Assembly (NCBI GenBank): GCA_008632985.1
Contig: QPGO01000129.1
Location: 124,001-188,000, forward strand
Source of the DNA: Psammoneis japonica
Taxonomy: Eukaryota
Direction of reading: 5' to 3'
DNA: 64,000 nucleotides
The position numbers and the translations under genes are program-made. Shown in pieces: positions 1-64,000 of the stretch (position 1 is the first letter of the stretch; every line of letters starts with the position of its first letter). The notes under the pieces are model-generated. The model was given only the letters and a program-made list of their open reading frames with translations, was not told the DNA's origin and did not search any database.

Positions 1-1699
1 CTCCTTGGTCTTGGAAGCCTGAATGTGATTCTCATTGGTCTTGCCAGTGCAATGTTTCCTTCCTTTGTCCTTCTTTTGCTCAGCCAGGTGGACAACATGT
101 GCTGACCTTCGAGTGGTTTTGGTTCATTTCTTGGCAGGCGATGTGATTTTGAGTGCATGTCGGAAGGAAGCTTTGTTGGTCAAAGCCTGCAATGTGTCTC
201 CCTTTTCCACCAGAGGAGTGGGGTGGAGCTCATCCTGCAGATGGGAAGCAGAGTGCATGTAGAAAGTGCATCCTGAATTGTCGATCGCCCTCTCGAATTT
301 CATGCTCAACCCCTCCCGGTTCTCCAAGGCTTTGTCCATGGCATCTTCAACATCTTGGAAACCTGGGCTGCAGTCAAGATCTCCATTGCTGATGTTGTTC
401 AGCAAGAAGTTGTCATTGAACAAAGCTTCCTTCTTTCCAGCGACTGGAGAGTCGAAGAATCACAGGCGCCAACTCGAAATCAAATGCGGAGTCATCTGAC
501 ATCAGCTGGGTTGTCTTCCTCTTCATGATCTGAGATGAGCTGCTCTCTGATGCATCACTTGGAGACAAAGGCATGTGTTGAAAAGCCTTCCTTCTCTTTG
601 TGCTTCGCCTTTTAGCCTCAATGGTTGAGACACAGAGATCAACTGACAATCTAAGAAAAAATCCGTGCTCGGCATCTTTACGGACATCAGTTGCACACCA
701 CAATGTTCAGCAAAACCAAGAGCACAGTGTCACACAACACGCAAAAGGTGAATGTTAGACAGCAGGTGATGTGGGGGTGAACCACGCAGCAGCACAAACA
801 AACAATTCTCATCGATTTCAAGAGGAACAACAACAGATTTTCGAGTCGGTTTTCAACGGATCTCTTTCTTGGAACGCACCAGCATCAATTTTTTGCACTG
901 CAGATTGATGGAGCATGCAAAGACATTTCTAAAACGCCCCTGCATGTCTCTGGGTGTGGCTTGGTTGATGAGAAATGACACTGAGAGGCAGCAAGAGTGG
1001 TGTGACGAGTGTTGTGATCAAAATTTTTTTTCTTTTTGCGCATGTCTGTGTGTGTGCAACTTGGTGTCACAATGGACACACATCATTTGTGCACTTCAAT
1101 CAGTCCATTTCTTGATGCCTTTGCATGCCGTCTTTGTCATCCCATGCCTTTTGATGCACGGGCCATGCCAGTCTGTCTGGAGATTCACAATCTCATCACA
1201 TTGGTGCTTCCTGTTCTTTCTGTTGTTCTTTGTGTCCAGAATCATTTGGCACACATCCAAAACATTGTGATGCATGCAAGGGGGTTGCTGGTCAACTGGT
1301 TTGTGTTTCCTTTGAGCTTTTGTGCCAACTCATCATGCGCAACTTTGAAGCTCAGGTTTTGAGCTTTTGACAGCATCTCATTGATGTCCACATCCAACGA
1401 TTGTTCGCTGACATTGTGCAATGCTTCTGTGGCAATCATCATGTCCTTCAAGCAGTTTTCTGACCACCGCTGCACAGTCACATGTCATGCTGTGTCCCCA
1501 ACTCATTGCTGAGCCAAGTCACATCATCCATCTCATTGATGGCCAATGGCTCCTTTTCTTTTGATGAACAGATGGTTTGTGGTGCAAGTGTCACATTCCG
1601 TCATGTCAGAGGTGCTGCCAGCCTCACATTGCCAAGGGATCTTTCACCCACACCACACATCAGAATTCCCTTTTTGACATCACAAACAGGATGCACTCC

Positions 1700-4250
1700 T
1701 GTTGTTCTTGATTCTCAACTGCCTGTGATGGCTTGCTTCAACTTTCAGAACTTCTTGCCCTGCAACGGCTTTGTCGTGAAGTCTCCAAGCATGTCATCTG
1801 TTGGACAACACTGTGCTCTTGGGTTGCCCTTCTTCGCTTGATCAGCAATGAAGAAATGCCAAATGTTGAGCACCCCAGACTGTTTCCCAGCACTCTTGTG
1901 CCCATTGGTTTCCAGCAGTGTGGCACTTTTGTTGTCCTGACATGGGACATTCTTGTCAATCAGACAACCCTGGTGTTCCACAAACAACTTGCTCCACAGG
2001 GTCATGGGGTCATCACATCATCAACTCCAGCTGGCTCAGCCTCTGTGCTGCTGTGGGCATTGAGCTGCTGCTGTTTGAACATTGTCTGCACCCCTCCATC
2101 ACCCATGGTCACAACTCCCCCTGTGCAGCTTTTAAAGTCCAGGTTTGCTGCAAATGATGTGCTCACATGCCACTTGACAACTTGGAGGTCCTTTGCACTT
2201 AAAGTGGCAACTTCACTCTTGTGTCCGTTTCAAACATTTGACACAATGGACTGGTTTCCCCCAATCCTTGTTGGTGAGTTCACTCACTTGCATGTGTGCT
2301 GCAGCAACAGCTGGGTGCACATCTGTGTGGCCCCTCTTGGAAACAAACAGTTGCTTGGCCACCCCTCTGTGGAAGGGTTGTGCTTTCTTCTTGGTCAGCA
2401 GTTGCATGCTGCCAGTGTCAAAGAGGTTCTGTGCAGCTGGCATCATGGCAACATCCACACTCTTGATCTTCTCTGGGAACTTGTTGATCATCTTCTTGAC
2501 ACAGCCACTCATGTCAACCTTCACTTTGCCCTTTGCACTGAAATCCAGGGTCATCCCCAGGCAGTTGTGCCTCTTTCCTTGAACAACAATGACCTCATTG
2601 TGGCTTCTGCACATCATGTTGAGCCAGCTCAAGAATTTGTCATTGACCTTTGGGTTCCTGTGGCTTGACAACAGGTTGTCCACATGGAAATGAATCATGT
2701 GCTGTTTGCCGCTGACATTTCCATTGGCAATGCATGGATCACACCATCTTGATGTCCATGTTGGCTTGCATCGTGCTTGTTTCTGGTTGATCACATGTGA
2801 GCCGCAGCTTGTGCCATGCAGAACATCTGCTTCTGACAGAACAACTTGGTCTGTTGGATGTTGTGGTGCTGATGCTTGTGCTGTCACCATCCATGAGTCT
2901 GTGCATGACTGTGTCCCCTGATGTCCAGCTTCTGTCCTGTGTCCCAAAACCAGTTGTTCTGCACTGTGCCACCTTTGTGCAAGCAGCTTGGGGACTTGTG
3001 GCCTTTTCCATCACAACAGCAGTGCACTGTGGTGTCACTTTGGTTGCTGTTCTGGGCATGGCTCTGGTTTTTGCTGTTGCTGTTGTCATTGTTGCCACCC
3101 TTCTTCTTTTTGCCCTTTTCATTGCTGTTTTCTTGTCCTGGTGCAGCTGTCCTTTGGATGGTTCAGCAATGTGTTTGCAGCTTTCTCCAGGGTCTTTGGG
3201 CAGGAGGCATCCTTGTCTGGACTGCAGTCCCTCACAATGCTCTTCTTGAGGCCCTTGCAACAATGATTGTTGCTGTGCTCTGAGAACAGGTGTGTCATCC
3301 ACTTCTTGCATGCCTCATCCTTTGGCTGTCTCTGAGTGTCAGGATTTGCTTCTTGACATTGTTTTGTGTTGGCGATGAACCCATCAAACATTTTCTTTCC
3401 CTGGCCTTTGCTCACAGCATCCTGCTGGTTCTTGAACCTTGACAAACAGTCATCACCTGTTCTTTTGTTCTCTTGCTGCCTCACATCCAGGAGGTTCTTC
3501 AGCGACTTGGTCAGCATGTGGAGTGGATGACAACCTCTCATTGAGTCAAATGTCAGGGTCTGAACTGGCTTCAGCGGCTCAATCAGATTGTCCCTCAGCA
3601 CAGGACAAGCTGGATCATGTTGCACTTGTTGTCACATTTGCCTGGAGCAACAGAGTCATTCCATGTTGTGAAAAATGCAACAGTCTTGTTCTCTTTGAAC
3701 TGCACAATCTTCTTGCAGCAACCATGCAATTCCTCCATGCACCTCTGCTCTGGCTCCTTGTTTTTGCACTCACACTGTTTTGGCAAGCTTTGGCAATTGG
3801 CGTCTCCTGGACCTGGTGGCGCTGTCTTCTGGGACATCTTCAGAGCGGGTTTCTTGGAATTGAAGTCCTTGCATTTTGTGTCCTCCAGTGATCTCGCCAG
3901 ATGGACTCCTTGCTCATTTTCCTTTTGCATGTGTCAAATGATCCACTCTATGTTGAAGGGTGGAACTTCAGCTCGGATGGAGAGCACTTCTTGTTGTTGG
4001 GACTGTCTGACCTGCGAATCTTATCATCTCTGTCTCAACTGCCAACTTGGCCAGATTGCTTGCCACTCCCTGTGCCACTCATGGCACAGGAGATCTCAGC
4101 TCATCTTTGGAGTGAATGTCAAACCAGCAAGTCAGTGCTGCCAAAAGGGAATCCTGCTGGGCTTCATGTGCTGCTTGTTGCACTTGCCTTGGCTTCTGCG
4201 TTGGCTTTGGGTTGCCTGCGGCGCCAATGTAAAACCTCCAAGCTGACAAC
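1700..4250 (-). mobile_element. Degenerate Ty1/copia (CoDi-like) LTR retrotransposon remnant: gag, RT and RNase H fragments
   Basis: Minus-strand fragments CDPCIANGNVSGKQHMIHFHVDNLLSSH (RT, HVDD-type) and KSAGKQSGVLNIWHFFIADQ...CCPTDDMLGDFTTKPLQGKKF (copia RNase H C-terminus), with a gag-like fragment at 3119-3930. Many frameshifts. LTRs not identified and boundaries approximate. Confidence 0.85.
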
Positions 4251-7200
4251 ACAACAGGCACCTGTTGACGCTGAGTGACAAATCAGGCAAACCAACAAAT
4301 GGCTCACTTGAAGAAAGAGCAAAAACAAAACAAAAAGCAAAGGCAGGGGGATCAATGATGGCGCACTCTTGTCAAAGATCATCATCATTCTTTGCTGTGC
4401 CAGGATTCAAAATTTGTTTTCTTCAACACTTCCAGGTCCCGCCTCTGGGTGTCCCAACACCAATTTCACCCTGTCAACTTTTTCTCTCCTCCCTTGGCAA
4501 AGTCTGATGCAGTGTCAGTGGGCAGCCACAAATTCACTTGGTTCGTTGTGTGCTGTGACTTGTGCCGCAATTTTTTTTGTCATTTCTGTGAGACTTTCTC
4601 ACAAATTTCACCTCATCAATTTCTGCTTTCTTTCTTTTGACTGATGTTGACAGGGTGAGATTTGTGTGCACACCCATGGGTGAGGAGAGCACTGGATGCA
4701 GCCATGGGGAATTCTCCTGAGCACCTTTTGTGACTCCCTTTCTCAGTTCAAGAATGGCAGCAGACAGAGAGGAAAAAGTGTCGGACACCTTTTCCAGTGA
4801 TTTTGAAGACTTTGCTGGCAATGAAAAAGAGCAAGAGGCCATTTCTTCTCACTGATCTTAGCACAGCACAGGGAGAATGGAGCTGCTGCTGGCAATGACT
4901 CTCTTTGCAAACAATGAGCAGAAGGTGGCTGTGATGTTGCCAGAAAAAAATTGCACTTGTGTCTTTCTCAAATGCAGCCACAAACAACTGAAATGTTTTT
5001 GAAACTTTGGGGGGGTGCAATTTTGAATCCGCACAACTTTTTCCAGGTCAAGAGAAAACACAAAACAAGGAGGCCAACTTGCAACAATGCAAAGCAGCAC
5101 CACACAGCATGTCACACACAACACAAAAGTTGTGAAAAAATGCAGCAATTGCAGCTCAGAGACAGACCAGCCTCTGAGTGAGCAGACACCAATGATGACA
5201 AGGTTGACAGAGACATTGTCAAGGGTGAGAGACCACATCAAAGAAAGAGCCTTTCTGAGCATCACACTCACATTTGATGCAAAGCAATTTGAGGAAACAG
5301 GCATGATGTGTGAAGACAAAATTTGCTGCAAGTGTCATTGAGCAAGATGGAAAATTGACTCCCACATCTTGCTGTTTCTCATGATGCAGGGGTGCAAGAA
5401 AACAAAGAAGCAAGAGCTCTCTGCTCTGAGGCCAACAGATGTTGCAAGCAAGCTTGAGAGCATCATCAACAAGGGCTTCATGGAAAAAGAAGTTGTCGTG
5501 AAGAAGGGAAAGTGCGCAAGACACTCAAGCACTTTGCAGCAAGCAACTGGAACCCAGCAGAGGAAGACACAGGCAGGAGATGATGCAAAATGCCAAGGAA
5601 GAGCAAGGGATGGTTGATGAGAGCCAACAAGTTCTTCTGCAAGCTGCTCATGGAAATCAAACAAGACATTGCTTCAAGTGAATGATGGCTCCTCTGCTGA
5701 CAGGAAGATTTGCACAAAAGAACTGCAGCCAGCTGTTGAAAGCAAACAAGAAAAGAGCTTGATGACTTGAGTGATGAGGGAGACCACATGATGAGCTGCA
5801 CCAAGATCTGTGAACTGGAGCTGGTGGTGGCAGTTTTGCAGACAAAAACCCACAAGCAGAATTTTCTTTTCATTGTTCAACATGAGATTCCAAGGCAACA
5901 CTCCACTCCAGAAACTGCACTTTAGACACAGCAACCATCAAGTTGAACATTTTGGGGGTGAAAACTTGGCGAGTTTTGCTGCACACTGACTGGGTTGACA
6001 AGATCTTGATTTGCAACCTCTTGGACATCTGTCAGAAAAATGGGCACTCATTTGTTTTCAAATCTTGCACCAACTCATGATGAAAGGGGTGGTTTGTGAC
6101 AAATCTGACTGATTTGTCACAAGTGAAATCATGCACTCACACTCACACACCTTTTCTTAGACTGCAGTCCACTCATCAGTCAGGGGGGGAGATTTCCAAA
6201 TTCCCCCCCCCCCCCCGATGCCATGCAGTGGCTTCAGCCAATGCTCAGCAGACAACACAAACACTCAAAAAGTGCGCTGGTCAGCAACACAACAACTGCT
6301 CTTTGGGCACACACAAGCACTTTGCAGGTGCAAGAAGCAAAGTTCTTGCTGGCTGTTGTGGCATGTCCCCATTGGAAGCATGGGCTGCTTCTTCAACAGG
6401 CAGCCACCATTTCACCTTGAGCTTGCTTCCAAAGACATGTGCAGTCAAATGCACGCAGAGAAAGCCACCAAGAACCCAAGCCTTCAAATTTGCACAGCAG
6501 TCATGTGTGGATGATGTTTGATGACTGAACTCCAGCAGATTTGGCTTGCAATGAGAGTGAGAGACAACCAACTTGCGCGCCTTTGGCAAAGAGCTGAAGT
6601 GGCCACATCAACAAAGATGATGATGTGTCTTTTTCAAAACATCAAATGGAGATTTTTGTGAGCTCCATGCAACAACAACAAGCAAAGTGATTCAGAAACC
6701 CATGTTGTTCCTGTGGTGTTTGCAATTTCAAAATTTTTGAGAATGGTGGGGAGAAACCAGCGGTGTTTCACTCTCACATTTGTGTGGCTTTTGTAAACCC
6801 CAATGCAACGCATCAGTCAACTTGGCACAGCACAAGCTCCAAACTCCAAGATTTCTTTTCCTCCAACCTTCATGCACCTCGCTGCATTGTTGCATCATGT
6901 TTCACCCCTCACACACCCACAGTGGCAGAAAAAACCACAAAGCCCACCAATGCTGCAGTTGCATCACACAATGTCACAGTTTGGGATGATCAAGCTCAAT
7001 CAATTCCATGGCTGCATGTTTGTGAAATTAACAGAGATGACTTTGACCACCAAAAGCAAATGCTGAGTCAGAATTTGACCACAGCAGCACACAAAAAGCA
7101 GAGAAAGAGCCCAGGAGGAATTGGAAGCAGCACACGAAGCACATCCTTTGCAAGACACAAGCAACAAAAAATCAATTGTTCAAAATGGCAGCCTTTGGTG

Positions 7201-10119
7201 CGTGCACTGGCAAAGCACGTTTTGCAGGGCACAGTGCAATTGGCAAGCTTTTTTGTGGTGGCTTTTTTGGTGGACATTGTGTTGCAAGTTCTGCACAAAG
7301 CTGCCCAAGGCATGTGGTGCACAGCTTGTCATGGAAATGGCAAGTTTTTTTGGAAATGGCAAGAAGAATCAGAGTGCATGTGAGCCATCCTCTTTTGCAT
7401 TGCAAACACATTGGCACACCTTTCCTCTTGTTCAAAATGCAATCTGTCTTGTTCAGTGCCTTTTTTGGAATGGCACAAATGTGGATTGTGTGTTGCAACA
7501 GATCCTGGCACTCCAGCTGAGATTTGTTTAGCCTGAATGGCACCCATGGCCGGGGATGACAATGTCTTGGCTGGCACTTTGTCCACCATCCTTGCCCTGT
7601 GCTGGTGTGCACATTGCTGAGTTTTGTCCTTCACCAAAGACATGTTTGGAGATGTGCAACCCAAAAATGTCTTTCTTTGGTTGCCAGCTGTTGCACAGTT
7701 TAATTCTAGCCTCGCTCTTCACTCTGTTGCTGTTCATTTCCAATCTCAGTCAGCATCTTCATGCAAGAAATGGACAAGCAGTGGTGCAGTGGTTGGCAAG
7801 CTGCAGAGAGATTTGATCTGTGAACTGCTTTGTGTCTGATTCCAGCACCACTCTTTGCCCCATGCACAAGAGAGTGAGGGGATTGGCTTGTCCCATGAAA
7901 TTGCTGCAGCAGTTGGCAGGGAAGTCATCAATGATTCTACAATGTTCACATCAAACAGTTGCTGTTGTGCAAGCAACATCGCCTCCTGTCACATCACTGG
8001 GACAGGTGAAATTCAATGAGTTGGCTGTGTGGAAATGGAGCTGCAAGTCATTTGAGCCACTTGCAAAAAATGCCAATGATTTTCACAGTTTGGAAGAAAA
8101 TGAGTTGGCAGCGATGCACGCAAGCATGGCTGGCAGAATTGCAAAACTCTCACAAGCCTTGAAAGAGCCCTTCATGAAGCAGAAGCAGCCCAGTGAGGAG
8201 TTGCAACAAGAATTTGATCCCAGGCTAAACTGTTTTGAAAAACTTCATCTCAAGCAACATCAACAAAATGGCGCTGGTGAGTCACAACAAGAGTTTGATG
8301 CAAGGAGAAACTTTTTCAAGCACTGCAACAATCAGCAGCTGGACAGAGAGCAAGAGACAGCATTTTTTTACAAGCCCTTCAGTTGCCATGCAAGAACAGA
8401 ATGAAAATGCACCAACAAAAATGACCAATCCTGGGGAAGCAGCATGCAAAGCACAAGCAATTCCAAACAGTCACCATGATTTGATGTGTCCAAGGTGCCA
8501 ACATTGCATCATGTGCCAAGGTGTGCTGCCTCTGTTCTTTTGTGAAAAGTGCAGATGAGACCATTGACCCCTGCATGGGTGCACAACTGCAGAACTGTCC
8601 ACGGGCAATCAAATCAGAAGACTGTTGCCACCAAAGCAGATGACCTTTTGCAGGCTTTTGGAGGCATTGTTTTTGTCTGAGGGGCACGCTTTTGGGTTGC
8701 ATCTTAATGGCATTTAGACCAAATGGGTTGCTTGTGGGAAGTGACTTGAAAGCATCCATTCCCAGCCTTTCAAATGAGTGTGGCGCAAAAGCTGCAAAAG
8801 ACTCCTTCAAAGCACTGTGGCAAATTTTGCAGCTGGAGATGAAATGTCAGACTCGCAGCACACATGTGCAGCTGCAGCTTTTGAGATGATGGTTGGAGAC
8901 AAGAACTTGACTCAGGAACAATTGCAGTGTCTCAAAAAGTTTGTGCGTGACCATTGAATCAGAACAAAGCCAATGAGGCTGCTGCCCAGGGCCCCATTGG
9001 AAGGTTGTTGCTTGGGCTGACACAATGGCAACACAGGAAGCTGCCATGAGCAAATGGTTTCCAGCAAAGAGCTCTCTCATTCTGATGAAATGTTTGCTTT
9101 GGAGTTGCATCAACAAGTTGTTGCCAGAGAGCACACAAGGCCATCAACCACAAGAAAGCTCAAAACCTCAAACATTCCACAAGGGAAAGCATCAAGCAAT
9201 GCAAGGAAAAGCTTCGACACACTGGCTCATTAGCTGAGGCTGCAAGCATGACCTGACAAGAGAGAAAGCCATCTTGAGTTGCTGTTGACAATGTGGTGTC
9301 CAGCGCAGACTTTGATGCAGACCAGTCTGATGTGCGCATCAAGTTGTTGTCAGGAGAGGACATCATGCCCAAAGAAAAGGAGCTGCCATCACTGGAAATT
9401 CAGCACTTTGTTGCAGACAGAGGCTTGGAGAAGTCAGAAGAAGTGAAGCTTTGGGAAATGACCAAGGGACAAGATCTTGCTCATGAAGAGACCAAGAGAA
9501 AATCAAGGCAGCTGCTGCTTTGCCAGATTTTTGTCTTGGACAATGACTTGCAGCTCAACAGCAAGGAAGCTTTTGTCTGATTGGTGTCCAGTCAGGATCT
9601 TGCTTTGGAAGAGGAGGCTCTTGCCAAGTCTGCAAGCCAACAAATTTCATTGAGCAAAGGCTTGGCACAAGAAAGAAGCTGCAATGCAGAAGGTGGTGTC
9701 AGGGGATGCTGTTTCTGATGAGGAAGTCCAGCTGCCTTTTTGGGCATGCCAGAAAATGTCCGAATCCAGACAAAATGTGCTTGGCAAGTCTTGTGACAAG
9801 ACTGAGAGGTGACAGACATTGAGACAGGAGAGGTTGCTGTGATGATGCTTCAGAGAGTGCAGGCAGGAAAATCAATGACAGCAAGAAGGGAGGAGGCTTC
9901 CATGCAGAAAATGGTGTGTGACAAAGAGCTCTCAACAGAAAACACTTCAGACAGCTGGTGCAATGCAAGCCACAAACTCTCTCCAACACAAATGCATCCA
10001 CAAACAAAATGAAGTTTGGGACAGAGTCTGGCTTCACCAGCTGCTGTTCTGACAAGGACAAGAGCAAAGAAGAACACTTCTTTGATGCCATTTGAAAACT
10101 CAGTGTCACTTGAGATCAG

Positions 10120-11590
10120 GAGAGCAGACTTGGACTTCCAAACTCCTCTGCAGAGTGAGAGGATCCCATGATGGTGCCAGCCAACCTGACAGCTGCACAA
10201 ACTGAGGACATTGGCGGTGTCTGATGGACCCCATGTGACAGTTTGAGAACTGTGGCTGGGCATTGCAAGGCTGATCTTGTGGTGTTGTGTTTGTCCCCAG
10301 CGGCAGCAGATGTGAGCTTCCAAACTCTAGAGCACAGGGGCCCCATGGCAGCCAACCCAGCAGCCGCTGCTGGCAGAGGACACTGGCAGCATCTGGTGAA
10401 CCCAGAGAGTCAAACTTCAAGAGCTGTTGTTGGGCATTGTTGCAAGGTTGATGTTGTGTTGTTGTGGCCCCATGTCACCTTGTGCCCAACAGGATGAGGC
10501 TTGAACTTTCAAATTCTGCAGTGAGAGGATCCCCCATGATGGTGCCAACCAACCTGACAGCTGCAAACTGATTGCATTGGTGGTCTCTGGGGACCCCAGG
10601 TGACAGCTTGAGAACTGTGGCTGAGCATTGCAAGGTTGATCTCATGGTGTTGGGGCCCCATGTGGCCTTGTCCCCAACAGCAGCAGACTTGAACTTCCAA
10701 AACTCTGGAGTGCAGGCACTCCATTGCGATGCCTGCCAACCCAACAACAGCCAGCAGAGGGCACTGGCAGCATCTGGTGGACCCAGGGTGAGACTTTTCA
10801 AGAGCTGTTCTTGAGCATTGCAAGGTTGATCTTGTGGTGTTGTGCCTCAGGTCACATTGTCCCCATCAGGAGCAGACTTGACTTTGCCTGCTCCTGAGTG
10901 CAAGGATCCCACGATGGCACCAACAAACCTGACAGCTGCTGGCAGAGGGCATTGGTGTTCTTTGGTGGACCCCAGGCGAGACTTCAAGAACTGTTGCTGG
11001 GTGTTGCAAGGTTGATTTTGTGGCACTGTGACCATGTGCAAAGTTGTGCCCAACAGCAGCAGCCTTGAACTTCCAAACTCCTGAGTGAAAGGACCCCATG
11101 ACTGCCCCAACCAACCTGACAACTTCAAGCCAAGAACACTGGCAGTGTCTGGTGGTTCACCCCAGGTGTGGCTTAAAGAGCTCTTGTTGTTGGGCATTGC
11201 AAGATTGCTCTTGTGAGTTTTGGCCCCATGCCACATTGTGTCCTCAACAGCAACAGACTTCAACTTCCACAAAGTTTGCACCAAACAGACCCCATGATGT
11301 GGCACCAACCATGCTGCCAGCAGAGGGCACTGGCAGTGTCTGACAGACCCAGGGCAAGACTTTGAGAGTTGTTGTTGGGCACTGCAAGGTTGATCTTGTG
11401 GTGTTGTGGCCCCGTCATGTCACCTTGGCCCCAACAGGAGCAGACTTGAGCTCCCAAACTCCAATGTGCAAGGACCCCATGTTGGCACCAACCAACCTGC
11501 CAGCTGCCAGCAGAGGGCACTGGCAGCATCTGGCGGACCTGGGGCAAGACTTCAAGAGCTGTTGTTGTGCACCACAAGGTTGACCTTGAT
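10120..11590 (+). repeat. Tandem array of about 8 diverged units of about 185-190 bp, probably a decayed protein-coding repeat
   Basis: Recurring motifs gcagacttgaacttccaaactc, ccaaccaacctgacagctgc, gagggcactggcagcatctgg and gcattgcaaggttgatcttgtggtgttg. Unit starts near 10124, 10305, 10493, 10683, 10872, 11059, 11252 and 11440. Confidence 0.9.
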
Positions 11591-12880
11591 GTGAGAATTG
11601 AGCAACCTTTTCTTTCAATCCAGCAGTGCCAGACAAAGGAGCCAAGATCACATGAGTCAAGCCTGCTGTGGCTCCTTGACTCTTGACGCATCCACCCAAA
11701 TGGAGCTGGAGCTGGCATGTTGTGAGGCAGCTGCCAACTGTTTGAACCTTGGGGGGAGAATGGCGCACATGCCACAGCTGGTCCTTCTGATGATGACAGT
11801 GTGGATCTTGGGGGGAGAGCAGTCACATGCCACACCTGGTCCTTCTGACAATGAAAGTGTGGATCTGGCTGAGTTGGAGAGAGAATCAAATGCAGACATG
11901 GAAGAGGAGAATCAGATTTCTGCAATCAAGAGAGACTGTTGCAAAGTGAAGGAGGTGACAAAAATGCCAAGGAAGTTCCAAGTGGTGCAGTTGACTCAAC
12001 CAAACAAAACAATTTGATGCACGTCAAACTTGTGTCAGAGTTGGATGCTGGTGAGCACAAGGATCTGCTGCTGAAGGCATTGGTCAAACAAATGGGGTGG
12101 AATGTTTGCAAGACACACAAGGCAAACCCCTGAAAAAGCAGTTGCATGATGACTTGAGTTTGCCCCCACCTCCAGACCACACGTTGTGCCAAACAAGGAA
12201 CAGCTGCTGAAGGTGTGCACCCAAGACTGCCACTTTTCATGTTGCTGCACTGCAGATCTCATGCATGTGCACCAACGTGCCCCAACTCTGTGCTGGCCAA
12301 GGCAAAATGCCCAGAAAGCATCAACTGTGCAATGCTGCATGGACTGCAACACCTTTGCAAATGCCCTGGCTGTCTGGAAGGTGCCAGGGAAGAGCTCACC
12401 ATTGCTTCTCTCACCCAGCCAAAAAATTGCTCCTTTCATTGCTGTGTGCTCAAACTGTCTCAAGAATGGATCTGGCATCCTGACTTGCCTGTGAACAATT
12501 TTTCGTTTGCTTTCCCAGCTGGCAGCAAAACACCCCAAACTTCAGCAGCAAGAGGCTGCTGTGCCTTGCATGGCTGCAAGTGCTGCACATCTGCACATTG
12601 TTCAGTCTCGCTGATGTCAAACAGCATGGAAGTGTGAACAGTTTCCAAAAATGGACAAACCAACAGAGATCTGCTCTGTTGGAAGCTGTTGTCTGTGGCT
12701 CTCCAATGTGGATGTCTTGCCCCAAGCTGCAACAGATCTCTCATGAGAGAAACATTTGAGCTCTGCCAATGGCGCAGCACTGCATTGTGGTGGTGAAGAG
12801 AAAGAAGTGGAAGATGCAAGTGTTGAAGTTGTTTTCACTGATTGCAGGGTGCTGATGCAGCCAGGAATTAAGGCGCTGTT

Positions 12881-13200
12881 GTGGAGACAGACCTCCCCTT
12901 TCATCATGGCATGGGGTTGCTGACGACACAACAACACAAAAGCACATGGACAGAGCTGTCACCACAGGAGCTTCAAATGAGTGGCTGTGCAAGTGCAACA
13001 AACCAATGGCAGCAAGACAAGAACTTGTTGCATGACGAGACTCAGACACTGCAAGAAATGCAAAAGGGAGGGTGTGTCATGTGCAAAACAAAGACAGCCA
13101 ACTGCTGCATGGGGTGTCACATGCATTGCTGCAATGACTCCTCCACAATGAAGGAAACAGTGTGCAGGAGTTTGCCATGGGCCCCCCCATCCTTTGCCAT
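12881..13200 (+). pseudogene. Cys-rich C-terminal fragment resembling the CRD of a piggyBac-like transposase
   Basis: CVMCKTKTANCCMGCHMHCC matches CxxC...T...CxxC spacing. Some Cys may be mutated Tyr and no DDD core was recognised. Confidence 0.25.
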
Positions 13201-52800: not shown

Positions 52801-55800
52801 GGAGTTGCAACACATTGTGGCTCTTGTGTGCAGGCACTCATTTCCTGCCCTGTGATTGCACAAATGATGGGTAGATTGGCCTGGCAATGAAGCAGCTCAC
52901 AAAGAACCGCCTTGAGAGTGCGGCAACAATTGGCAACAACAAGGTGCACAGACTCATCCTTCTTTTCTTTTGGGTCAGCATTTGTTGCAGGAGAACAACA
53001 GAGCTTGTTTTTTTGCTTTTGACTGGGCACAAAAATCTCTTTTTGTTTGTTGAGAAGCAACAAGGAGAGACAAAGTTGGTGCTTTCATGACCAGCCAATG
53101 TTTTGAGTCAATGAGTGATGAGCAAAATGAGCACATTGTGGATGAGTTTTGATGCAACCCTGCCTGCATCATTTGCCAAAGTGGCTGGATCTTCGATTTT
53201 CTCAAGACTGGCTGAGGCAAATCAGAGCAAAGCAGAGCAGAGCAGAGCATCTCTTTTCGTGTGCAAAGTTGTCCACAGCACTGGACATTGAGCTCACATG
53301 CTTGGCACAGCAGCAGCTCTTGTTGACCCAGAGATTTGACAACATTGGTGTTGCAAGTTTTGTCATTGCAGGAACTTTGTCAAGCTGTTTTGTCACAAAA
53401 GTGGCAGAGACCAATGTCAACACCCGTCAGCGCAGTGCCAACATTGGGGTTGTTGAAGTCACAAAGTGTGCACTGCCTTTGAGAAGAGACTTGGAGCTGG
53501 GTCACTTTTGGCTGTTGTTGATCTTTTGCTCAACACCAAGCACTCCATGGAGAAAGTGGCAGGAGTGGTGCACCAAAATGGTGGCTTTGTCAAGCCAGGG
53601 ATGTTGGTCAATGCAAAATGTGGTCAGGAGCTGGCACCCACTGCTCCTTGCAACAGCACACTCCTTTTTGCATGACAGAAAATGAAGATGACTGGGTGGA
53701 AGAAAACAACAACTCCTTGCTGCTGTCTAAATGGCAGATGAGTCTCGGTGCAGAGACCGTTGCAGGAGCCGAAAGACTGGTGTCATGATGTTGGTGCTGC
53801 TGTCATCATTTTTGTGAGCCCAGTGGCTCAAAAGCAAACTGCATCACATGACACGTGCGCAGAACTGAGAGCACACACAATTGTGTGTGACAAACTAAAA
53901 TCTTGTTCAAATCCTGTCACTCCCCAGTTTGCTTGAGGGGTCAACAGCAACAGATTCAAAGTCGGGTTGGTTGAAAGCCTCAGGATTGAAGCTCCAAAAC
54001 ATTAGAGGATGAAGGAGGTTCCAGATTTGGGAGCAACCCCAATGCTTGCTGAGGATGCCAGCCGGGTTGCAGGAGCCTTCGACAAAATGAAACTCAAGGA
54101 AACTGGAGGCAATTGCCTCACGCACACAATGGAACAAGAGGGCGGTGTGTCACTTGTGCAACTTGGAGTGCAGGATGGCAGCACTGTCCACAACCAACTT
54201 GAATGGACACTGTCGATGGGCATGTCTGTGAGGTGTCCATCAGCAACAAGCCTTGCTTTGTGCCATCCGTCATGTTTGACGTCACAGATGAGATGCACCC
54301 GGATCTTCTTGTGTCCTGATGGAGCACTGGAGTCGTTGTGGTGTCCGCAGTCATGGAAGACCTTGCACTCATCAAGCTGAGTCATCTTGAGGTCCGTTGC
54401 ATCTCCCCACTTGCAGTTGCCATTGCACTCATCAAGGGCCATGGCATGCCTGCAGTCCCGTGGCACTTCACACCCGCACTTGCATCGTGGTGCAGCACAA
54501 AAGGAGCGCAACTTGGCTTGGTTGGCCATGCGGAACAGCTTCTTCTGATGAAGGGCTGTCTTGCAAAAGCATCTCCATCCTTCGGTTTCTAGAAGGCTGT
54601 GCTCATGCGCACAGATGGCACAGGTGATGGGGTCATCCTTCTTGGCAATGACGGCAAGGGGTTTGGACGTGATCTCCCCATTCTCCCATTCAAGCATGAC
54701 GTTGCAGCTTGAGCCTTTCCAAGAGAAATCATGGGGTCGCAATGGTCCTTCGTGCGATGCGATGCGTTGGAACTTCCAGAGGGTGGTGTCCTCGTCTTCT
54801 TGCTCAATGTGGTGCATGATGTCATTGCAGGCCAGGACTTCCTTGCATTCGTCATTGTTGACGGAGCAAATGAACTTGACCAGTTCAGGATTGTCTCCGG
54901 TTTTCCAGTCATGGTCCTCAACAACTTTGACGATGCGGGCTCTGCAGCGTTGTCCACCCTCTTGTGGCTTCATGAGAAAGGTGTGTCCTGTGACATCCTT
55001 GGGGTCAAAGACCGGCATTTTGGGCATCCTGATCACCTCCCCATCTGGCGAATCTGGCAAATCCTTGGAGTCGTGGTGGGATGTGATGACAGGTTCAGCA
55101 GATTTCTTGTCAGGAGGATCAAGACGCAGGTTTGGAGCAGACGGATCATGGGCGGAGTGCACGTTGGAACGGCAGAGAATCTTCTGAGTGTCATCAGAAA
55201 GAATCTTGAACGTCATTTGGTGGCCAATGTGCTCAGCGATGTGCGGGAGGCCGGCTTTAATGTCGATGGGAATGACGCATCCATCAACAGTGGTGACACG
55301 CTGCAGACCATCGGGGACCTTGATGGACCGATCATTGACACCATGTTTGTGCCACTCAAGCTGGCCGCAAGAGTGTGGCAGGGCCACGATGCATGTGGAT
55401 GACACCGCTGGCAGCGACAATGGGAATGTCTGCCAGTTGATGATCATCGACACCTTGGACGTCAATGTCATTGGGCTTCACGTCAGAGCGGACGGAAGGT
55501 GCAGATCTGGGCGGTTTCTTGCCAGAACGGGCGGAAGGAGGCCGTTCAGGTGCCAGGAGACATTGCAAGTCGCTGGGTGGAAGGGGCTTGTGCCTGGTGA
55601 GATGAGTCAGAATGGGGTTAGTGTCAGCTGCATCGGCTGCAGCGTTGGATTGTGCGAAGGCTGACGCAAGATCGCGAGTGTTGGCGGACAAGTTGACATC
55701 GCCATCACTGCCAATGTGGAGGTCATGCAGGTTGACCGCCATCAAGTCATGGCAGTTGCCGGTGTGGGCGGTGCACAAGCCAAGAATGATGGCCTTGGTG

Positions 55801-55821
55801 GACTGGGGCAAGGTGTCCCAA

Positions 55822-56210
55822 GACGCGTTCCAGGTCCAGGTGGGACCTTGCACTGCTGAACTGTGACATCGACAGTTTTTTGAATCGCGTCGCATGTTGC
55901 GCACGTGCATTTCTACGTGATTTTGGCGAAATTTTGCATCATTTTACAGTGCAATTGTCAGGCGATCCATTCAACAACTTTTAACATTTTTTTCTTCTGC
56001 ACCATTCTTGAGTGTCTTAAGAATGGCGTGGGGCAGGCGCATTGTCCAAAACTTTGAGTGCAAACAGAGACATGTGCACTGCAAACTTGGCCGTTTGTTT
56101 CATGTCGAAGACAAACACATCCATCAACCAGAGTGTGAACTGCAGAGCTTGCACGCAGTGTTCCATGGGGCAAATGTCACAAAAAGTCCCACCTGGGTCT
56201 GGAGCCCGTC
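55822..56210. mobile_element. 389-bp MITE inserted in gag of element B, 4-bp TSD CCAA
   Basis: ccaa|gacgcgttccaggtccaggtgggac ... gtcccacctgggtctggagcccgtc|ccaa. Removing it restores QCVW-DTLPQ. Confidence 0.9.
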
Positions 56211-57143
56211 CCAAACGCACTGATGGTCCAGCGGAATGCGACGCCATTGTTCCTTGGTGAGGGAATTGCCACGAATTTGCACAGCACAAGCTTGGATGAT
56301 GTCAACATCACTGTCGATGTCAAAGAACACATCATCATCAGGGTCATCAGGGACCAGGTCATGTTCACAGATGGCACGGCGCGGAGCACAAGGAGCTGTC
56401 TTGGGGGCAAACGTGCTGTTGCACTGTGCTGCAGCAGAAAGCAGGAGTCCACAGTGCTCTTTGCAAGAGAGCCCCTTTTCATTCTGCACGCGGAACTGAT
56501 CGGCCAGATTCTTTGCTGAGCGGAGTTCTTCAACAGGATGAACGGCGTTCTCAAGCATGGCATGTTTCTGGCCAGCAGAGAAATGGTCTGCACCCGGGAC
56601 AAGAGCTTTGTGCTTGTGAATCAGGTCCTGCCAGTGAAGTGTGGAGGCATGAGTGGATCCCTTCCAGGTGCCATCACCGAGGCGAGCAGTGGTGAGGTGC
56701 ATGAGAAGGGTCGAGGACTCCAGGGATGCACGAGTGGAAGCAAGGGCGCACTTGGAGAGGTCACGACACACCGCTTGAGCATCAGAGGAGCTGACATGTT
56801 GATGAACAAGTGCCCTGCCTTTGTCATTCTGCAAGATCCGTTCCAACACTGCGAACATGCACTTCTGTTGTTCATCAAACAGGGCCTTGTCCTCAGCCGT
56901 GGAAGGATTGCATGTCGGATTGAGAATGCGTGCGACGTCTTGGGAGCGGGCCTGTGCGATGATGGAGGTGTGCCATGTGTGCCGCTGTTTGCAGGACTTG
57001 AGAAGCACAAAGGTGAGTGGGTCACGTTTGATGCCTCACTCAAAGTCACGCACGGGATCACGTGGTTTGGGTGGCAACAAGCCAGGAGTGGGAGCAGATG
57101 GTGCTGTGCCCATGGAGAGGGACGCTGCATGCTCAGGACCAAG

Positions 57144-57533
57144 GATGTGTTCCAGGTCCAGGTGGGACCTCACACTGCTGAGCTGTGACATCGACAGTTT
57201 TTTGAATCGCGTTGCATGTCGCGCACGCAGATTTCTGCGTGATTTTTGCAATGTTTTGCATCATTTTATGGCACATTTGTTGAGCGATCCGTCCAACAAC
57301 TTTTGACATTTTTTGTTGCAGCACAATTCTACAATGTCTTGAGAATCGTGCAGGGCAGGCGCACTTGCGAAAACGTCGAGTGGTGTGAGGCACAACTGCA
57401 CCACAAACTTGGCCATTTATTTGATGTTGAAGACAAACACATCCACCAATTAAATTCTCATGCAACGGAGCTCGCATGAAGAATTCTGTGGGCCCAATGT
57501 CACACGGAGTCCCACCCAGGGCTGGAACGCGTC
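57144..57533. mobile_element. 390-bp MITE, same family, second insertion in gag of element B; TSD CAAG/TAAG
   Basis: caag|gatgtgttccaggtccaggtgggac ... gtcccacccagggctggaacgcgtc|taag. Interior aligns with 55822-56210. Confidence 0.9.
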
Positions 57534-57957
57534 TAAGATGACAGTTGGTGAACTCCTCTTGTGTGAACAATTGAGGGTCATTGCTGACATCTGCGCCGTG
57601 CACGCTTTTACCTTGTGCAGGCCAATCAGCGCAGCTGTCTGTGCTTTGCAACCACGTGGCAAGGGCATTTGATTGGTGCCATCGTTGCACACAAGGGCAT
57701 CCAATTGCACCAAAGTAAAAGTGACAAGGTCCTGGTGCGAATCGGTTCCATCAATGTTGAGGGCGGAGCGCAATGGACTGTCTGTGGCTTGATTCAGAAC
57801 AGTGCCTAGAATGTGCTTGAAGCCATCGATTTGTTGTTGCCTGGTGAGAACCATGTTGCAACTGGGTGGATGTCGGAACTGGCTGGAATCAGAGTGTGGG
57901 CTTGAAACAACTTGAAACTTGACTTGAATCTTGACTTGATGTCTTGAACTGTCTCAA

Positions 57958-58501
57958 GGATGGATCGTTGAGATGAGGTCTGTCCACGTGCGAGCTCGCA
58001 TTTTTTTGGAAAAAACCCGGATTTCTTGCACTGGATGCGCGCACTCGCCAACAAAATGTTTTCAGCGATGGGCGCGCTCGCCAACAAAATGTTTTCAGCG
58101 ATGGGTCGAACTTTCTCCCTTCAAAAGACATCACAGAATGTGTTGGCGATGGTTGTGACCATGCGCGATCTTTAGCTTGACGACTGAAGACATGTCCATG
58201 GCCAGTCAAACGCCAATTGTCGGCTTTTCCTGGAAAGTTGTGGCTTGTCTCCCATGAGCAGTGCGATTTTGGCGAAAAACAGCGGTTTGTTGCATGTGAC
58301 AACTGCACCAAATCCGACAACTGGCATTTGAAGGTTGAAATGTGTGGCTCACACACAGATCTGACAGCCCTGATGGGGGCTGGACACAGTCATGTGTGTT
58401 TGGGGGTGCTCAGAGGCATCGCAAAATGACACGGGCGAAGTGCGGGGAAATTGCAAAATCACGAGCTAATTAAAAAAATGCCTCATCTGGACGATCCATC
58501 C
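57958..58501. mobile_element. 544-bp non-autonomous DNA transposon inserted at a TTAA site (Kolobok-like termini)
   Basis: tcaa|ggatggatcgttgagatgagg ... cctcatctggacgatccatcc|ttga. The homologous empty site in element C reads ctgattttaagacagttc (about 62697-62714). Confidence 0.8.
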
Positions 58502-59923
58502 TTGAGAGTCAGAAACCGCCGGGCTGCGACATCCTGTTTGCAGTTGAGTGCTGAGCTTCCCATCCGGTCCACAGGGTTGTGCCGGCACATCCGAGCCCGC
58601 AGCTGGCGACGCTTTGGGTTGCTTGAGAGTGGAGCAACGGGTTAAAAACCCCTGCTGACAAGCCAGCCAGAGGTGGGCAAGACCTCCAAACCATTCTTGT
58701 TTTATGTCGGTTGGATGACCCGATCAGGCCAGCCAAATTTGGTGCTGTGGAGGGACGAACAAAGGTGGGAAATGCACCCTTGCCCCAACGCAGGCTGTGA
58801 TCATGAACTGCTTCCTCTCACAGTTGTCCTCGCAGACCTTGTGGGACTGTGGAAGACCAGCAATCCGGCGCAGATACAAGGTGGCAGACTTGGCGTGCGC
58901 GGAGCAGAGCCAGAGTCAGGGGTTTGTGTCGTGTGCGCGTGGACGTGAGCGGATGGATTGGTGGGATCCGCTGTGAGGAATCCAGAATCTCGGATGTCTG
59001 AGGATTCGGGAATTCCTGGCCAAACAAACATCCGTTGAACAAATGTGTCCAATGATGAGAAGCATTGGATGAATCCAAACATGCAGATTTAATCCAGCGT
59101 CCAACAGTGAAGAAGGTAGACACACACTTCCACCACCAATGGTGCGCGTCATCGAAAAATTTCTCGATGACGATGATGAATGCTCAATGGACAATGAAGA
59201 GCAAGGCTGTCAATCTGACAGAAAATGAAGATGACTGGGTGGAAGAAAACAACAACTCCTTGCTGCTGTCTAAACAGCAGATGAGTCTCCATGCAGAGAC
59301 CGTCACAGGAGCCGAAAGACTGGTGTCATGATGTCGGCACTGCTGTCATTGTTCTTGTGAGCTGAGTGGCTCGAAAGCAAACTGCATCGCGTGACGTGCA
59401 CGGAACCAGGAGCACACATGATCATGTGTGACAAACTAAAATCTTGTTCAAATCCTGTCATTGCAGATTCAGCTGATCCAGGGCTCACTTTCAACACAGC
59501 AACATCAGCCCAAACAGACAGCCGCTGACTCACACCATTGATTTGAAGCTCTGGAGTTGGCCCATGTTTTCAATCCCCAAGCCACTGAAAGCAGGCCAGC
59601 CCAAAGACGGGGGCATTGTCAACATTGAATCCACAACCACAAGCTGATGCTGGCAAAGAATTGGAGATAATTCCAGGACATTGAGTGTCTCACCCCTCTT
59701 CTCACAACTTTGCCAAAACCTCTTTGGCCAAGTCTTTTTGCATGCACGGCCAAATTGTCAACATGGGCAAGTTCAAAATGCACCGGCTGTCCAGCAGTTC
59801 CTCCCAGCCAGATGGAAGAAGAAGAGAAAAGGAAAAGGAAGGAAAAAATGAACATTGATGAAGGTTTGAAAGGGTGCGCTGCAGCACCGCAGTGCGCACA
59901 GTGGTGAAGACGGACGTGGACAG

Positions 59924-61605: not shown

Positions 61606-64000
61606 TGACAGGATTTGAACAGGATTTGGGGTGCGCACGAAGTGTCGCGCGCTGTTTAGTTTACCGTGCACAGTTTTGTGTGCTTTAGTTCCGCGCGTTC
61701 ACGCGCGATGTAGTTTGCTTTCGAGCCACAAGGCTCACAAGAATAATGACAGTAGCCCGATTGTGTGCCGACTCACACGTCTTTCGGCTCCTGCAACGGT
61801 CTCTGAGCGGAGACTCATCTGCTGTTTAGACAGCAGTAAGGAGTTATTGTTTGAATTCTTGCCATTTGCCTTCATTTCCTGTCAGATTAACAGTCTTGCT
61901 CATTGTCAACCCATTGAGCAACCGCCATCGTCGTCGTTGATTTACCAACGACGCTATTTCAATTCTACGTGGACCTCCGTATATATTCTACATACATCGG
62001 CAAGTCTACGCGCATTCGATACCAGGGCATCGGCAGGAAGTTAACGTCACCGTCAAGTCTCCTTACCGCTGGATATCTGGATTGATTACACTACCTTTGA
62101 CCGCTGAAGACATACATTCAACGGTCATATCCAAGTCTATCCTTGATCCTCATCCCTTGATATACCTATTCATCGGTTAACGGTCAAGAACCCTACATAT
62201 TCAAGGATCTTCGTCGCTGAAGACATGTATATATATACATGTCTTCACGGCCAAGAACCTGTACCCACTCTTCGGACTGCGGTTTTGCCACCACTCTGCA
62301 GGCACACCGAGTCCATTGTACCTGATCTACCCCGGACTGCTGGTGCTCTACAGTTCTGCTGGGTCCACGAGGACGACTGTGAGAGCAAGTGGCCGTGATT
62401 GCAGCCTGCGTTGGGGCGAGGGTGCTTTCCCACGTTTGTTCGTTCGTCCACAGCGCCTGACGCCTACGTCAACTGGCCAGCCTGATCGGGAAATCCAACC
62501 GACATAAAATAAGAACGGTTCGGGGGTCTTGTCCACCTCCAGTCAGCTTGCCTGCAGGGGTTTACAACCCGCTGCTCCGCTCGCAAGCAACCCAAAGCGC
62601 CACCAGCTTCGGGTTCGGACGTGCCGGCACAACTCTGCGGACCGGATGGGAAGTTTAGCACTTGACAACAAACGGGATGACAAAGCCCGGCGACTTCTGA
62701 TTTTAAGACAGTTCAAGATTTCAAGTCAAGTCTGTTTCAAGTCAAGTCTGTTCTCACCCAAGTTTCGAGTCTACCTTCTCTTCCCAACCAGAATTGATTG
62801 TCCTGACACCACTTTTGTCTGCCATGGTTCTCACTCGTCAGCAACAAACCGATGGTTTCGAGCACGTGGTTGGAACCGTGCTTGCCCAAGGTGCTGGGAG
62901 TCCTCTTCGTTTGGCTTTGGCCCAAGACGGCACGGACTCGCATCAGGAACTGTTCACGTTCATGCCGTCCCAAATCGACTCGCTTGAGTGCGACAACGGC
63001 ACTAATGCAATCCCTTTGCCCCGTGGTTATAAGAACATGTTAGCAGCACTGGTCAGTCTGTACATTGTCAAAGCACACAAAGGTCTTGACGTTGCCAACG
63101 ACTCCTCTTTGTTCACGCATGACGAGTTCCTTGCCTGCCGCCTCAGCCCCGACTGCATGTCTTCTGTGTCCATCGGCAGCTCACCCCTTGCACCTCCACA
63201 TGTCACCAACCCGACCAAGGCACGCGACCCGGTGCGGGACTTCAAGCGAGGCATCAAGCGTGATCCCACCGCTTTCACGGCTCTCAAATCCGACAAGCAG
63301 TGGCACACTTGGCACACCTCACTTGTGGCACAAGCCCGTGCCCAAGACGTCGAGTGCATTCTAGACTCGTCGTACAAACCGACCAGCCCCGAAGACAAAC
63401 TGCTCTTTGCTGAACAGCAAAAGCACATGTTCGCCGTCTTCGAACGCATCCTTCTCACCGACAAGGGCAAGGCTCTCATTCGCGAAAATGTGGGGTCTTC
63501 TGACGCACAGACCGTCTGCCGCTCCTTGTCTGAGTGCGCGCTTGCCTCCACCCGTGCATCTGTCGAGTCCTCCACCCTGCTCACGCACCTGACCACCGCT
63601 CGTCTTGGTGATGGCACTTGGAAAGGTCCGACCCACGGGTTCATCCTTCATTGGCAAGATCAGTTGCGCAAGTGCGAGGCACTCATCCCGGCCAGTGACC
63701 ACTTCTCTGAAGGACAGAAGCGCGTCATGCTCGAGAATGCCGTGCACCCTGTCGAGGAACTCCGTGCTGTCAAGAACCAAGCTGATCAGCATCGTGCGCA
63801 GAGTGGCAAGAGCCTCACATGCGATCAACACTGTGGCTTGCTCCTCTCCGCGGCAGCTCAGTGCGACAGCACGTTTCAACCCAAGACGACACCTCGAGCT
63901 CCCCGACGCGCCACACACGCACATGACGTCTGCTCCGAGGAACCGTCCGACGATGTGTTCTACGACATTGACAGCGACGTTGACGTCCTTCAGGCCAATG
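61606..64000 (+). mobile_element. Ty1/copia element C (same family as B): 5' LTR, leader and gag, only partly mutated; runs off the window
   Basis: LTR 61606-61884 (tgacaggatttgaac...ttcctgtca) is homologous to the B LTRs. gag starts at ATG 62824 (MVLTRQQQTDGF), includes RDPVRDFKRGIKRD and appears open to the window end. Confidence 0.93.

Follow-up and report, generated by a model that had tools for sequence, protein, structure and literature searches.

Fungal repeat-induced point mutation (RIP) changes C to T mainly at CpA, makes TpA, and requires duplicated sequence; APOBEC3 deaminates C to U on minus-strand complementary DNA (cDNA) before integration, with a bias for one strand. Hypermutation that destroys TpA has been described in the chlorarachniophyte Bigelowiella natans (Rhizaria), from 15 mutation-accumulation lines sequenced with Illumina reads (Mettrop et al., bioRxiv 10.64898/2026.01.13.699255). 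According to the text of that preprint, 231 of 302 new mutations fell in an integrated giant virus and virophage; mutations in these viral regions were nearly all A:T to G:C, and the GC-biased ones were all at TpA. The rate was ~1,000-fold over background and the process was active in 11 of the 15 lines; the genome holds 124 TpA-poor clusters rich in CpA and TpG, these clusters and its TpA-poor coding sequences are enriched in reverse transcriptase (RT) and DDE domains, and the authors propose an ADAT2-type adenosine deaminase as the only candidate (10.64898/2026.01.13.699255). Here, we analyze a 64,000-nucleotide stretch of Psammoneis japonica DNA (GenBank assembly GCA_008632985.1, contig QPGO01000129.1, positions 124,001 to 188,000 of the forward strand; hereafter the window, with positions counted from its first base). 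About four-fifths of the window, made up of retrotransposons and other repeats, is TA-poor, TpA having given way to TpG and CpA. An earlier note on this DNA, made from the letters alone (the original prediction), took the signature for that of a candidate undescribed genome-defense system, a claim that the B. natans lines do not bear out. The window is a case of B. natans-type TpA hypermutation in a diatom-like host; what it adds is a rule for the third base and evidence that the process acts after insertion. All results concern this single 64-kb window as assembled.

How thorough is the loss of TpA, and where does it stop? Counts in 250-bp bins and the individual TA positions show DNA in two states, and we delimited TA-poor and TA-keeping parts by the clusters that the TA form. 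Over the whole window, the ratio of observed to expected dinucleotides (O/E) is 0.16 for TA, 0.50 for CG, 1.64 for TG, and 1.61 for CA. The TA-poor part (51,969 bp; G+C 0.498) holds 140 TA where 3,270 are expected, an O/E of 0.043, with values of 0.39 for CG, 1.74 for TG, and 1.71 for CA. The TA-keeping part (12,031 bp; G+C 0.469) holds 528 where 847 are expected, an O/E of 0.62, with CG at 1.01, TG at 1.20, and CA at 1.18. The depletion of TA is thus real and far above chance, and the contrast that the original prediction drew between stripped repeats and spared gene blocks holds. It had spoken of three gene islands; TA-keeping blocks do exist, but they number five to eight (the four so labeled in Table 1, together with 61657-62772), and the last belongs to a less-mutated long terminal repeat (LTR) element and is not an island of host genes. 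Transitions between the two kinds of DNA are sharp, only tens of bases wide, and TA is missing altogether from 58 stretches of 300 bp or more, the longest of them 2,735 bp. CG is also depleted in TA-poor DNA, in two grades: an O/E of ~0.1-0.3 at 1-14k, 27-29k, 34-43k, and 50-54k, and of 0.4-0.9 elsewhere. Assuming that the TA-poor DNA started out with the O/E values now seen in TA-keeping DNA, it lacks 1,898 TA and 1,994 CG and carries a surplus of 1,754 TG and 1,733 CA, a nearly even balance of 3,892 TA and CG lost to 3,487 TG and CA gained.

The depletion reshapes what the DNA appears to encode. Counted on both strands of TA-poor DNA, the stop triplets are 2,459 TGA, 139 TAA, and 99 TAG, and this scarcity of TAA and TAG is the reason that many overlapping long open reading frames (ORFs) run through it. 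Examples lie at 44327-46014 and 54002-57188, where ORFs 200-490 aa long overlap one another on the two strands. Tyrosine is missing altogether from the 545-aa and 480-aa ORFs, a count given in the original prediction that we confirm, and more broadly from 8 of the 10 long ORFs counted in TA-poor DNA (ORF 45794-46693 has one Tyr); four gene ORFs have 6-13 each.

In which direction did these sites change? In each of five paralogue pairs, one copy lies in TA-keeping DNA, and the 72 TA of these TA-keeping copies correspond to 27 CA, 25 TG, 5 TA, and 15 other dinucleotides in the partner (93% changed). For comparison, the 14 other non-CG dinucleotides change at 29-45% of sites (AA at 39%) and CG at 58%, the 132 ancestral CG having yielded 31 TG and 25 CA. 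The copia RT gives a second measure. We compared it with 40 full-length relatives at 60-67% identity (3.55% Tyr). Tyr is conserved in at least 70% of them at 18 columns; at none of these does the window keep it, the residues being 11 Cys, 6 His, and 1 Gly, while conserved His (10/10), Asn (10/10), and Phe (15/16) are kept. Relatives of the RT that bear names come from Fragilaria and Epithemia. The altered motifs that had been pointed out at the outset—CVDD, NACL, ALHGLK, SGCRPELD, ACLK, and VACH—are all present in the 545-aa ORF at 47881-49518. Further frequent changes in this protein (Ile to Val, Thr, or Met; Thr to Ala; Val to Ala; Leu to Ser; Arg to Cys or His) are those expected from conversion of TA to TG or CA across codon borders, combined with CpG decay.

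The same specificity appears at the codon level, in a consensus of 32 relatives from metagenomes (internal stops, present in 6, were treated as X). Each of the 13 conserved TA has changed, 9 to TG, 3 to CA, and 1 to GG. A has become G at 10 of 13 sites after T, 1 of 24 after A, 0 of 12 after C, and 3 of 52 after G (i.e., 10/13 at TpA vs. 4/88 otherwise). Together with the 52 of 72 paralogue sites now TG or CA, these counts support a TpA-specific, near-saturating A:T to G:C mutator acting on transposon and repeat DNA with gene blocks spared, much as the original prediction had supposed; its suggestion of a Pol-eta-like signature at WA (W, A or T) is not supported, in that AA is not hit. The conserved Tyr of the relatives means that Cys and His are not native to this family. 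Among the matches listed, all 240 protein relatives contain 2.9-5.5% Tyr, and 79 related metagenome copia loci have a TA O/E of 0.46-0.90, and nowhere in their 408,631 bp is TA missing for 300 bp or more. Two refuting outcomes named in the original prediction, Cys or His native to the family and T:A to C:G change no more frequent at TpA than elsewhere, were looked for and not seen.

Other origins of a TA-poor sequence were considered and rejected. A natively TA-poor family is ruled out by the Tyr and the normal TA content of the relatives, selection against TA by the conversion of noncoding repeats and LTRs as well, and GC-biased gene conversion by the lack of any rise in change at AA, AT, and TT.

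Does a base beyond the dinucleotide matter? We sorted TA sites by their flanks (R, purine; Y, pyrimidine). In the paralogue pairs, ancestral RTAR sites became CA 11 times and TG once, with one kept, whereas YTAY sites became CA 4 times and TG 12 times, with none kept (Fisher p = 6e-4 for the two classes). RTAY sites divided evenly (7 CA, 7 TG, none kept), and the YTAR class, composed of TTAA, TTAG, CTAA, and CTAG, gave 3 CA and 5 TG and retained 4 of the 5 sites kept overall. The surviving sites agree: YTAR makes up 96 of the 140 TA left in TA-poor DNA but only 85 of the 528 in TA-keeping blocks, and survival relative to TA-keeping density is 0.6% for RTAY, 3.2% for YTAY, 3.3% for RTAR, and 26% for YTAR. 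Among trinucleotides, O/E is 0.01 for TAT, 0.03 for TAC, 0.06 for TAG, and 0.08 for TAA, and the most enriched products are TGC, TGT, GCA, and ACA. The target is the A of 5'-TAY or, equivalently, because TpA is self-complementary, the T of 5'-RTA, and the flanks predict whether a site ends as TG or CA. Under a strand-additive model, the per-strand exposures are a = 2.56 (TAY) and b = 0.67 (TAR); for the two mixed classes, the model predicts a -ln survival of 3.23, against observed values of 3.46 and 3.41.

This rule also accounts for the mix of Cys and His. A Tyr codon is always TAY, so the path to Cys is always open, while His requires that a purine precede it. After a purine, Tyr codons have become His 4 times and Cys 4 times; after a pyrimidine, they have become His twice, Cys 7 times, and Gly once. 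We also considered a single deaminase acting at both T-C-G and T-A; this is rejected, as CpG survival (0.32 at TCG/CGA, 0.32 at ACG/CGT, and 0.36 at CCG/CGG) is not reduced in the TCG/CGA context.

When, and on which strand, does conversion occur? The LTRs of one element are identical at insertion. Those of LTR element 2, which is flanked on both sides by a perfect 5-bp target-site duplication (TTGCA), now show 26 mismatches in 245 aligned bases, 14 of them within 7 adjacent TG/CA doubles and 6 being CG/TG or CG/CA. Between the LTRs of copia element 1, 178 bases contain 26 mismatches, and 7 TG/CA doubles are found among them (8 counting overlaps). Outside TA and CG sites, each pair has just 2-3 single mismatches and 2 further double mismatches. 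A TG/CA double is the mark of two independent hits on one ancestral TA. None of 5,000 simulation runs with matched number and type of LTR mismatches reached the observed doubles (means 0.5 and 0.8), and four TA-keeping control pairs have 0, 1, 1, and 2, which is the chance level. Discordant LTR pairs together with an intact target-site duplication therefore place conversion in chromosomal DNA, after integration. In the tandem duplicate at 36040-41531, one part has 8 TG/CA doubles in 1,805 aligned bases and the other none in 904; the two copies share most TG/CA states, indicating that most conversion predates the duplication. Copia element 1 (TA O/E 0.04-0.10) lies in older DNA poor in both TA and CG, yet retains a CG O/E of 0.5-0.66, so the loss of TA must be much faster than CpG decay.

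Both strands are hit alike. TA-poor DNA holds 5,467 TG and 5,353 CA, the TG and CA outcomes in the inverted pair described below form 17 runs (17.9 expected), and only 3 of 100 windows of 500 bp show a strand bias of |z| >2.5. The run count and the window scores rule out strand-coordinated or processive editing, and the timing after insertion combined with hits on both strands excludes editing of transcripts or single-stranded cDNA as the main source.

What decides which DNA is converted? Two inverted arms 800 bp apart have had opposite fates: 22601-23083 has 48 TA, many of them of the most sensitive class, and 23883-24369 has 3. At the positions of those 48 TA, the converted arm carries 18 TG and 16 CA. 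The second copy of LTR element 2 is similarly uneven. Its LTR (61657-61886) keeps 11 TA, none of them RTAY, and is at an early stage of conversion; the stretch 61953-62350 is untouched, with 32 TA, 18 of them RTAY; and the gag region at 62773-64000 has 8 TA left in 1.2 kb. The untouched stretch aligns poorly to the other copy of the element and may be a young insertion. Since one repeat copy can stand untouched beside a converted one, homology alone does not decide the target, and the idea of a repeat-targeted reverse RIP, put forward in the original prediction, is not supported. Converted DNA coincides with DNA that shows CpG decay; on the simplest reading, the process would follow the local chromatin or methylation state, perhaps in bursts. 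Within the untouched stretch, a perfect palindrome around a TATATATA core (62218-62247) is visible by eye.

Taken together, these results favor DNA-level, post-insertion hypermutation of TpA to TpG or CpA in transposon-rich DNA, with gene blocks spared, to which we assign a probability of about 0.8. The data show directly the signature, its direction and base context, its timing after insertion, and its sharp local borders. In the mechanism we propose, the hypermutated DNA of this diatom-like alga would probably be silenced and CpG-methylated. Each strand would be attacked separately, the A of 5'-TAY ~4 times faster than the A of 5'-TAR, and a TA site would cease to be a target once either of its bases had changed. 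Tyr codons thereby turn into Cys or His, TAA and TAG stops vanish, and the elements are inactivated, while 5-methylcytosine (5mC)-type CpG decay runs in parallel in the same DNA, at a slower pace. By analogy with what is proposed for B. natans, the process would be enzymatic and would serve genome defense.

Several observations weigh against this interpretation. It leaves the targeting unexplained, in that the untouched arm and the 400-bp stretch of the LTR element adjoin fully converted DNA. No second occurrence was found among the 79 metagenome loci and the 240 protein relatives among the matches listed. As self-complementary dinucleotides, TA and CG are each a potential site of base modification, and in the same domains both go to TG or CA, a pattern that modification-dependent miscalling could in principle mimic. 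Finally, as far as the text of PMC10354150 goes, wild-type TadA does not edit DNA, and the only DNA-editing ADAT2 tested, that of amphioxus, edits at 5'-GAA and 5'-TCG, preferring 5'-GAA rather than TAY.

How does the window compare with described systems? It shares with B. natans the change of TpA to TpG or CpA, nearly only A:T to G:C, the local attack on foreign or mobile DNA with the remainder left normal, the link of TpA-poor, CpA- and TpG-rich DNA to mobile-element domains (RT and DDE in B. natans), and the escape of some candidate targets. In the B. natans lines, the changes were seen to arise de novo; in the window, discordant LTR pairs and an intact target-site duplication show a post-insertion origin. 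The hosts differ (a chlorarachniophyte vs. a diatom-like stramenopile), as do the targets: a giant virus and virophage with a Rho of 0.45 and many TA left, according to the preprint text, as opposed to LTR retrotransposons and other repeats near saturation, at an O/E of 0.04. The words trinucleotide, flanking, context, and diatom do not occur in the main text of the preprint, nor does an LTR test or an analysis of CpG decay appear in that text. We found no literature report of TpA hypermutation in diatoms, and a text search of preprint 10.64898/2026.07.24.739820 gave no match.

Other systems resemble the window in part. Like RIP, the process is a transition hypermutation in a dinucleotide context that inactivates repeats after integration, within sharp local borders; it differs from RIP in destroying TpA and raising G+C, and the duplication-triggered attack on all copies is absent here. 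APOBEC3 and ADAR are likewise deaminase-type hypermutators that have a neighbor-base preference and cripple retroelements, but the window shows A:T to G:C changes, on both strands, after integration, and with a 3' pyrimidine. ADAR works on double-stranded RNA; an origin of this kind predicts pre-integration changes on the transcript strand at 5'-UAG, and in the window, TAG is among the slow sites. Decay of 5mC is evident (CG O/E 0.39; 56 of 132 ancestral CG now TG or CA); LTR retrotransposons of Phaeodactylum carry CpG methylation, according to the text of PMC2806351. Such decay explains the CpG part only, cannot produce the loss of TpA, and is slower in the window.

Which chemistry could be responsible? 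As a tentative first guess, held at somewhat less than even odds, the agent is a polynucleotide deaminase acting on adenine, with modification or oxidation of thymine in second place. In tRNA, the A34 deaminated by TadA and ADAT2 is preceded by a conserved U33. These enzymes convert A to I, which is read as G, and U33-A34-C35 partly resembles the TAY of the window; they differ in that tRNA is their natural substrate and that, in the window, T at +1 is at least equal to C. Early adenine base editors prefer YAC. The texts of PMC9399415 and PMC5808320 hold nothing on TadA context, and PMC10661471 gives the natural site of TadA and ADAT2 as 5'-ACG.

The alternative that survives best keeps the same targeted process and changes only the base attacked. 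Thymine in 5'-RTA would be modified or oxidized by a JBP- or TET-like enzyme to 5-hydroxymethyluracil or 5-formyluracil and would then mispair with G. TpA and TpC are the main sites of 5-hydroxymethyluracil in dinoflagellate DNA, and a 5-formyluracil base mispairs with G. A to G and T to C at a self-complementary TpA cannot be told apart from sequence, the motif reads equally well as RTA, and the amphioxus ADAT2 has no preference for TA. Set against this, neither an enzyme that modifies thymine nor a modified base is documented here, the sole candidate named in the B. natans preprint is an ADAT2 homologue, and the 5'-ACG site of TadA, following U33, resembles TAY. We regard attack on thymine as unlikely, although it is the most serious of the alternatives.

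More improbable is that no dedicated system exists and that a spontaneous lesion at the flexible TpA step, an adduct of adenine or thymine, is repaired in open, transcribed chromatin and left unrepaired in heterochromatin, silenced DNA drifting to TG and CA as a side effect. The strand symmetry would follow, as would targeting by local domain instead of homology and the coincidence with CpG decay, which is typical of methylated silent DNA; even the gene blocks reach a TA O/E of only 0.62. Such a lesion sits poorly with a loss of 96-99% of TA where LTR mismatches outside TA and CG sites are few, and with untouched TA-rich DNA lying inside converted DNA. The ~1,000-fold rate in B. natans, in 11 of 15 lines, suggests an activity that can be switched.

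It is less probable still that the signature is an artefact of assembly or base calling, with modified TpA (and 5mC CpG) in silenced DNA miscalled and the true TA and CG persisting. Besides the self-complementarity noted above, the absence of the signature from the other data on the copia family (the 79 loci and the relatives among the matches listed) speaks for this possibility. Miscalls made position by position on two strands should also yield CG and TA, whereas the outcomes exclude each other, 52 of 72 sites being TG or CA and only 3 CG and 5 TA. The LTR pairs are discordant and the 1.8-kb tandem duplicate is mostly concordant, which fits inheritance and not a context-dependent error. Consensus accuracy is high, judging by the intact gene ORFs of 858 and 411 aa. 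The contigs of run X1 contain 0.81 of the exact 31-mers sampled from 14001-24000, a stretch that is 49% TA-poor; the run is perhaps the source sample and so not independent. The B. natans signature, moreover, came from Illumina reads. Weakest of all, and close to negligible, is ADAR-like A-to-I hyperediting of retrotransposon transcripts fixed by reverse transcription: LTR retrotransposons are the clearest cases and ADAR hot spots (5'-UAG) share the preferred 5' U or T (PMC10661471, in the text available), but the LTRs of an element with an intact target-site duplication carry independent TG and CA outcomes, the strands are hit equally, conversion also reaches the satellite, the tandem duplication, and an inverted repeat, and the 3' preference is for Y.

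What would TpA-specific hypermutation in this host mean? A second lineage, and for the first time a stramenopile, would join B. natans in this A:T to G:C process, turning a single-species curiosity into a possibly widespread algal genome defense that is the mirror image of RIP. Near-saturation offers what the young targets in B. natans cannot: the TAY rule, strand-independent kinetics, and action after insertion. All three constrain the enzyme and make a sharp prediction for the published list of B. natans mutations, and two distant hosts allow phylogenetic profiling for the enzyme. A broader and more doubtful proposal is that Stramenopiles and Rhizaria share, by descent or convergence, a dedicated, chromatin-directed enzyme, a natural A:T to G:C editor of double-stranded chromosomal DNA at 5'-TAY, which would act in homology-independent bursts as a heritable defense against transposons and integrated viruses. 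A natural editor of DNA adenine (or thymine), if real, would be of interest for base editing. There is also a practical consequence, since with TAA, TAG, and Tyr codons gone, gene callers predict false ORFs and Pfam overlooks dead transposons.

Table 1. Features of the window, in window coordinates
Feature	Position	Strand	Remarks
TA-poor block	1..17557	.	CG O/E ~0.1-0.2 to 14k, 0.4-0.8 for 14k-17.5k
Old copia-type RT remnant	2216-3010	minus	Nearest named clusters in Atlas RVT_2, score 0.93-0.94; a lead only
Satellite, 188-bp units, 376-bp higher-order period	10122-11588	.	68-76% matches; in TA-poor, CpG-poor DNA
TA-keeping gene block	17558..21931 (two short gaps)	+	MYND-finger and Hsp70-family ORFs
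MYND-finger protein ORF	18156-19151	+	Known domain found
Hsp70-family ORF, 858 aa	19264-21840	+	Known domain found
TA-free block, 591 bp	21933..22523	.	Directly 3' of the Hsp70-like gene
TA-keeping block	22524..23231	.	Untouched inverted-repeat arm 22601-23083 (48 TA)
TA-poor block	23233..24968	.	Converted inverted-repeat arm 23883-24369 (3 TA)
TA-keeping block	24969..26802	+	Ricin-B-lectin-like gene 25758-26462
TA-poor, CpG-poor block	26804..29096	.	Separates the two lectin genes
TA-keeping block	29097..32970	.	Tandem ricin-B-lectin gene and Gpi16 fragment
Tandem ricin-B-lectin gene, 411-aa ORF	29668-30903	+	
Gpi16 fragment	31188-31703	minus	Pfam
Tandem duplication in TA-poor DNA	36040..41531 (36040-38824 vs. 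38823-41531)	+	93-95% identical
Copia element 1	43163..49853	+	LTRs ~43163-43340 and 49676-49853; pol 45392-49515, in at least 3 frames
LTR element 2	53673..59460	minus	LTRs 53673-53919 and 59216-59460; ends TGACAG...CTGTCA
Copia-like pol fragment of LTR element 2	54197-54703		
Second, less-mutated copy of LTR element 2	61657..64000	+	Extends past the window end

The spared blocks carry ordinary genes in long ORFs free of interruption (Table 1). The Hsp70-like ORF has no close relative in the collection searched; all its named relatives are diatoms, at 35-48% identity (best match 48%), and include Seminavis, Cylindrotheca, Nitzschia, Amphora, Thalassiosira, and Skeletonema. With the named relatives of the copia RT, these place the window in a diatom or near kin of diatoms and not in Bigelowiella. 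The N-terminal Lys/Arg-rich part of the Hsp70-like ORF contains an 86-bp tandem duplication (19582-19754; 2.0 copies, 100% match), and a 22-bp unit repeated 2.4 times (21820-21871) spans the stop codon of the gene. The two ricin-B-lectin-like genes form a small family of secreted proteins, ~80% identical, and the second is itself an internal tandem duplication (29742-30290 vs. 30288-30836, 94% identical). The Gpi16 ORF (glycosylphosphatidylinositol transamidase) covers only the C-terminal part of the domain (448-548 of the 571 profile positions); probably the gene is either split by introns or carried on in neighboring ORFs.

Conventional annotation recovers little from the converted DNA. Among the 158 ORFs of at least 110 aa, Pfam matched only Gpi16, in a gene block; the hypermutated copia RT scored 28.9 bits against RVT_2, under the 31.6 cut-off, and the block holding the old RT remnant had no Pfam match. 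Atlas gave no usable match for ORF 40258-41577, and much of the TA-poor DNA beyond the named elements, satellite, and duplications is unclassified. ARAGORN called no tRNA genes in the window. In TA-poor DNA, a 116-bp repeat occurs at 24657-24771 and 41940-42054 (83% identical); by eye, its minus strand includes a string resembling a tRNA T-arm, and it is possibly a remnant of a tRNA-derived short interspersed element.

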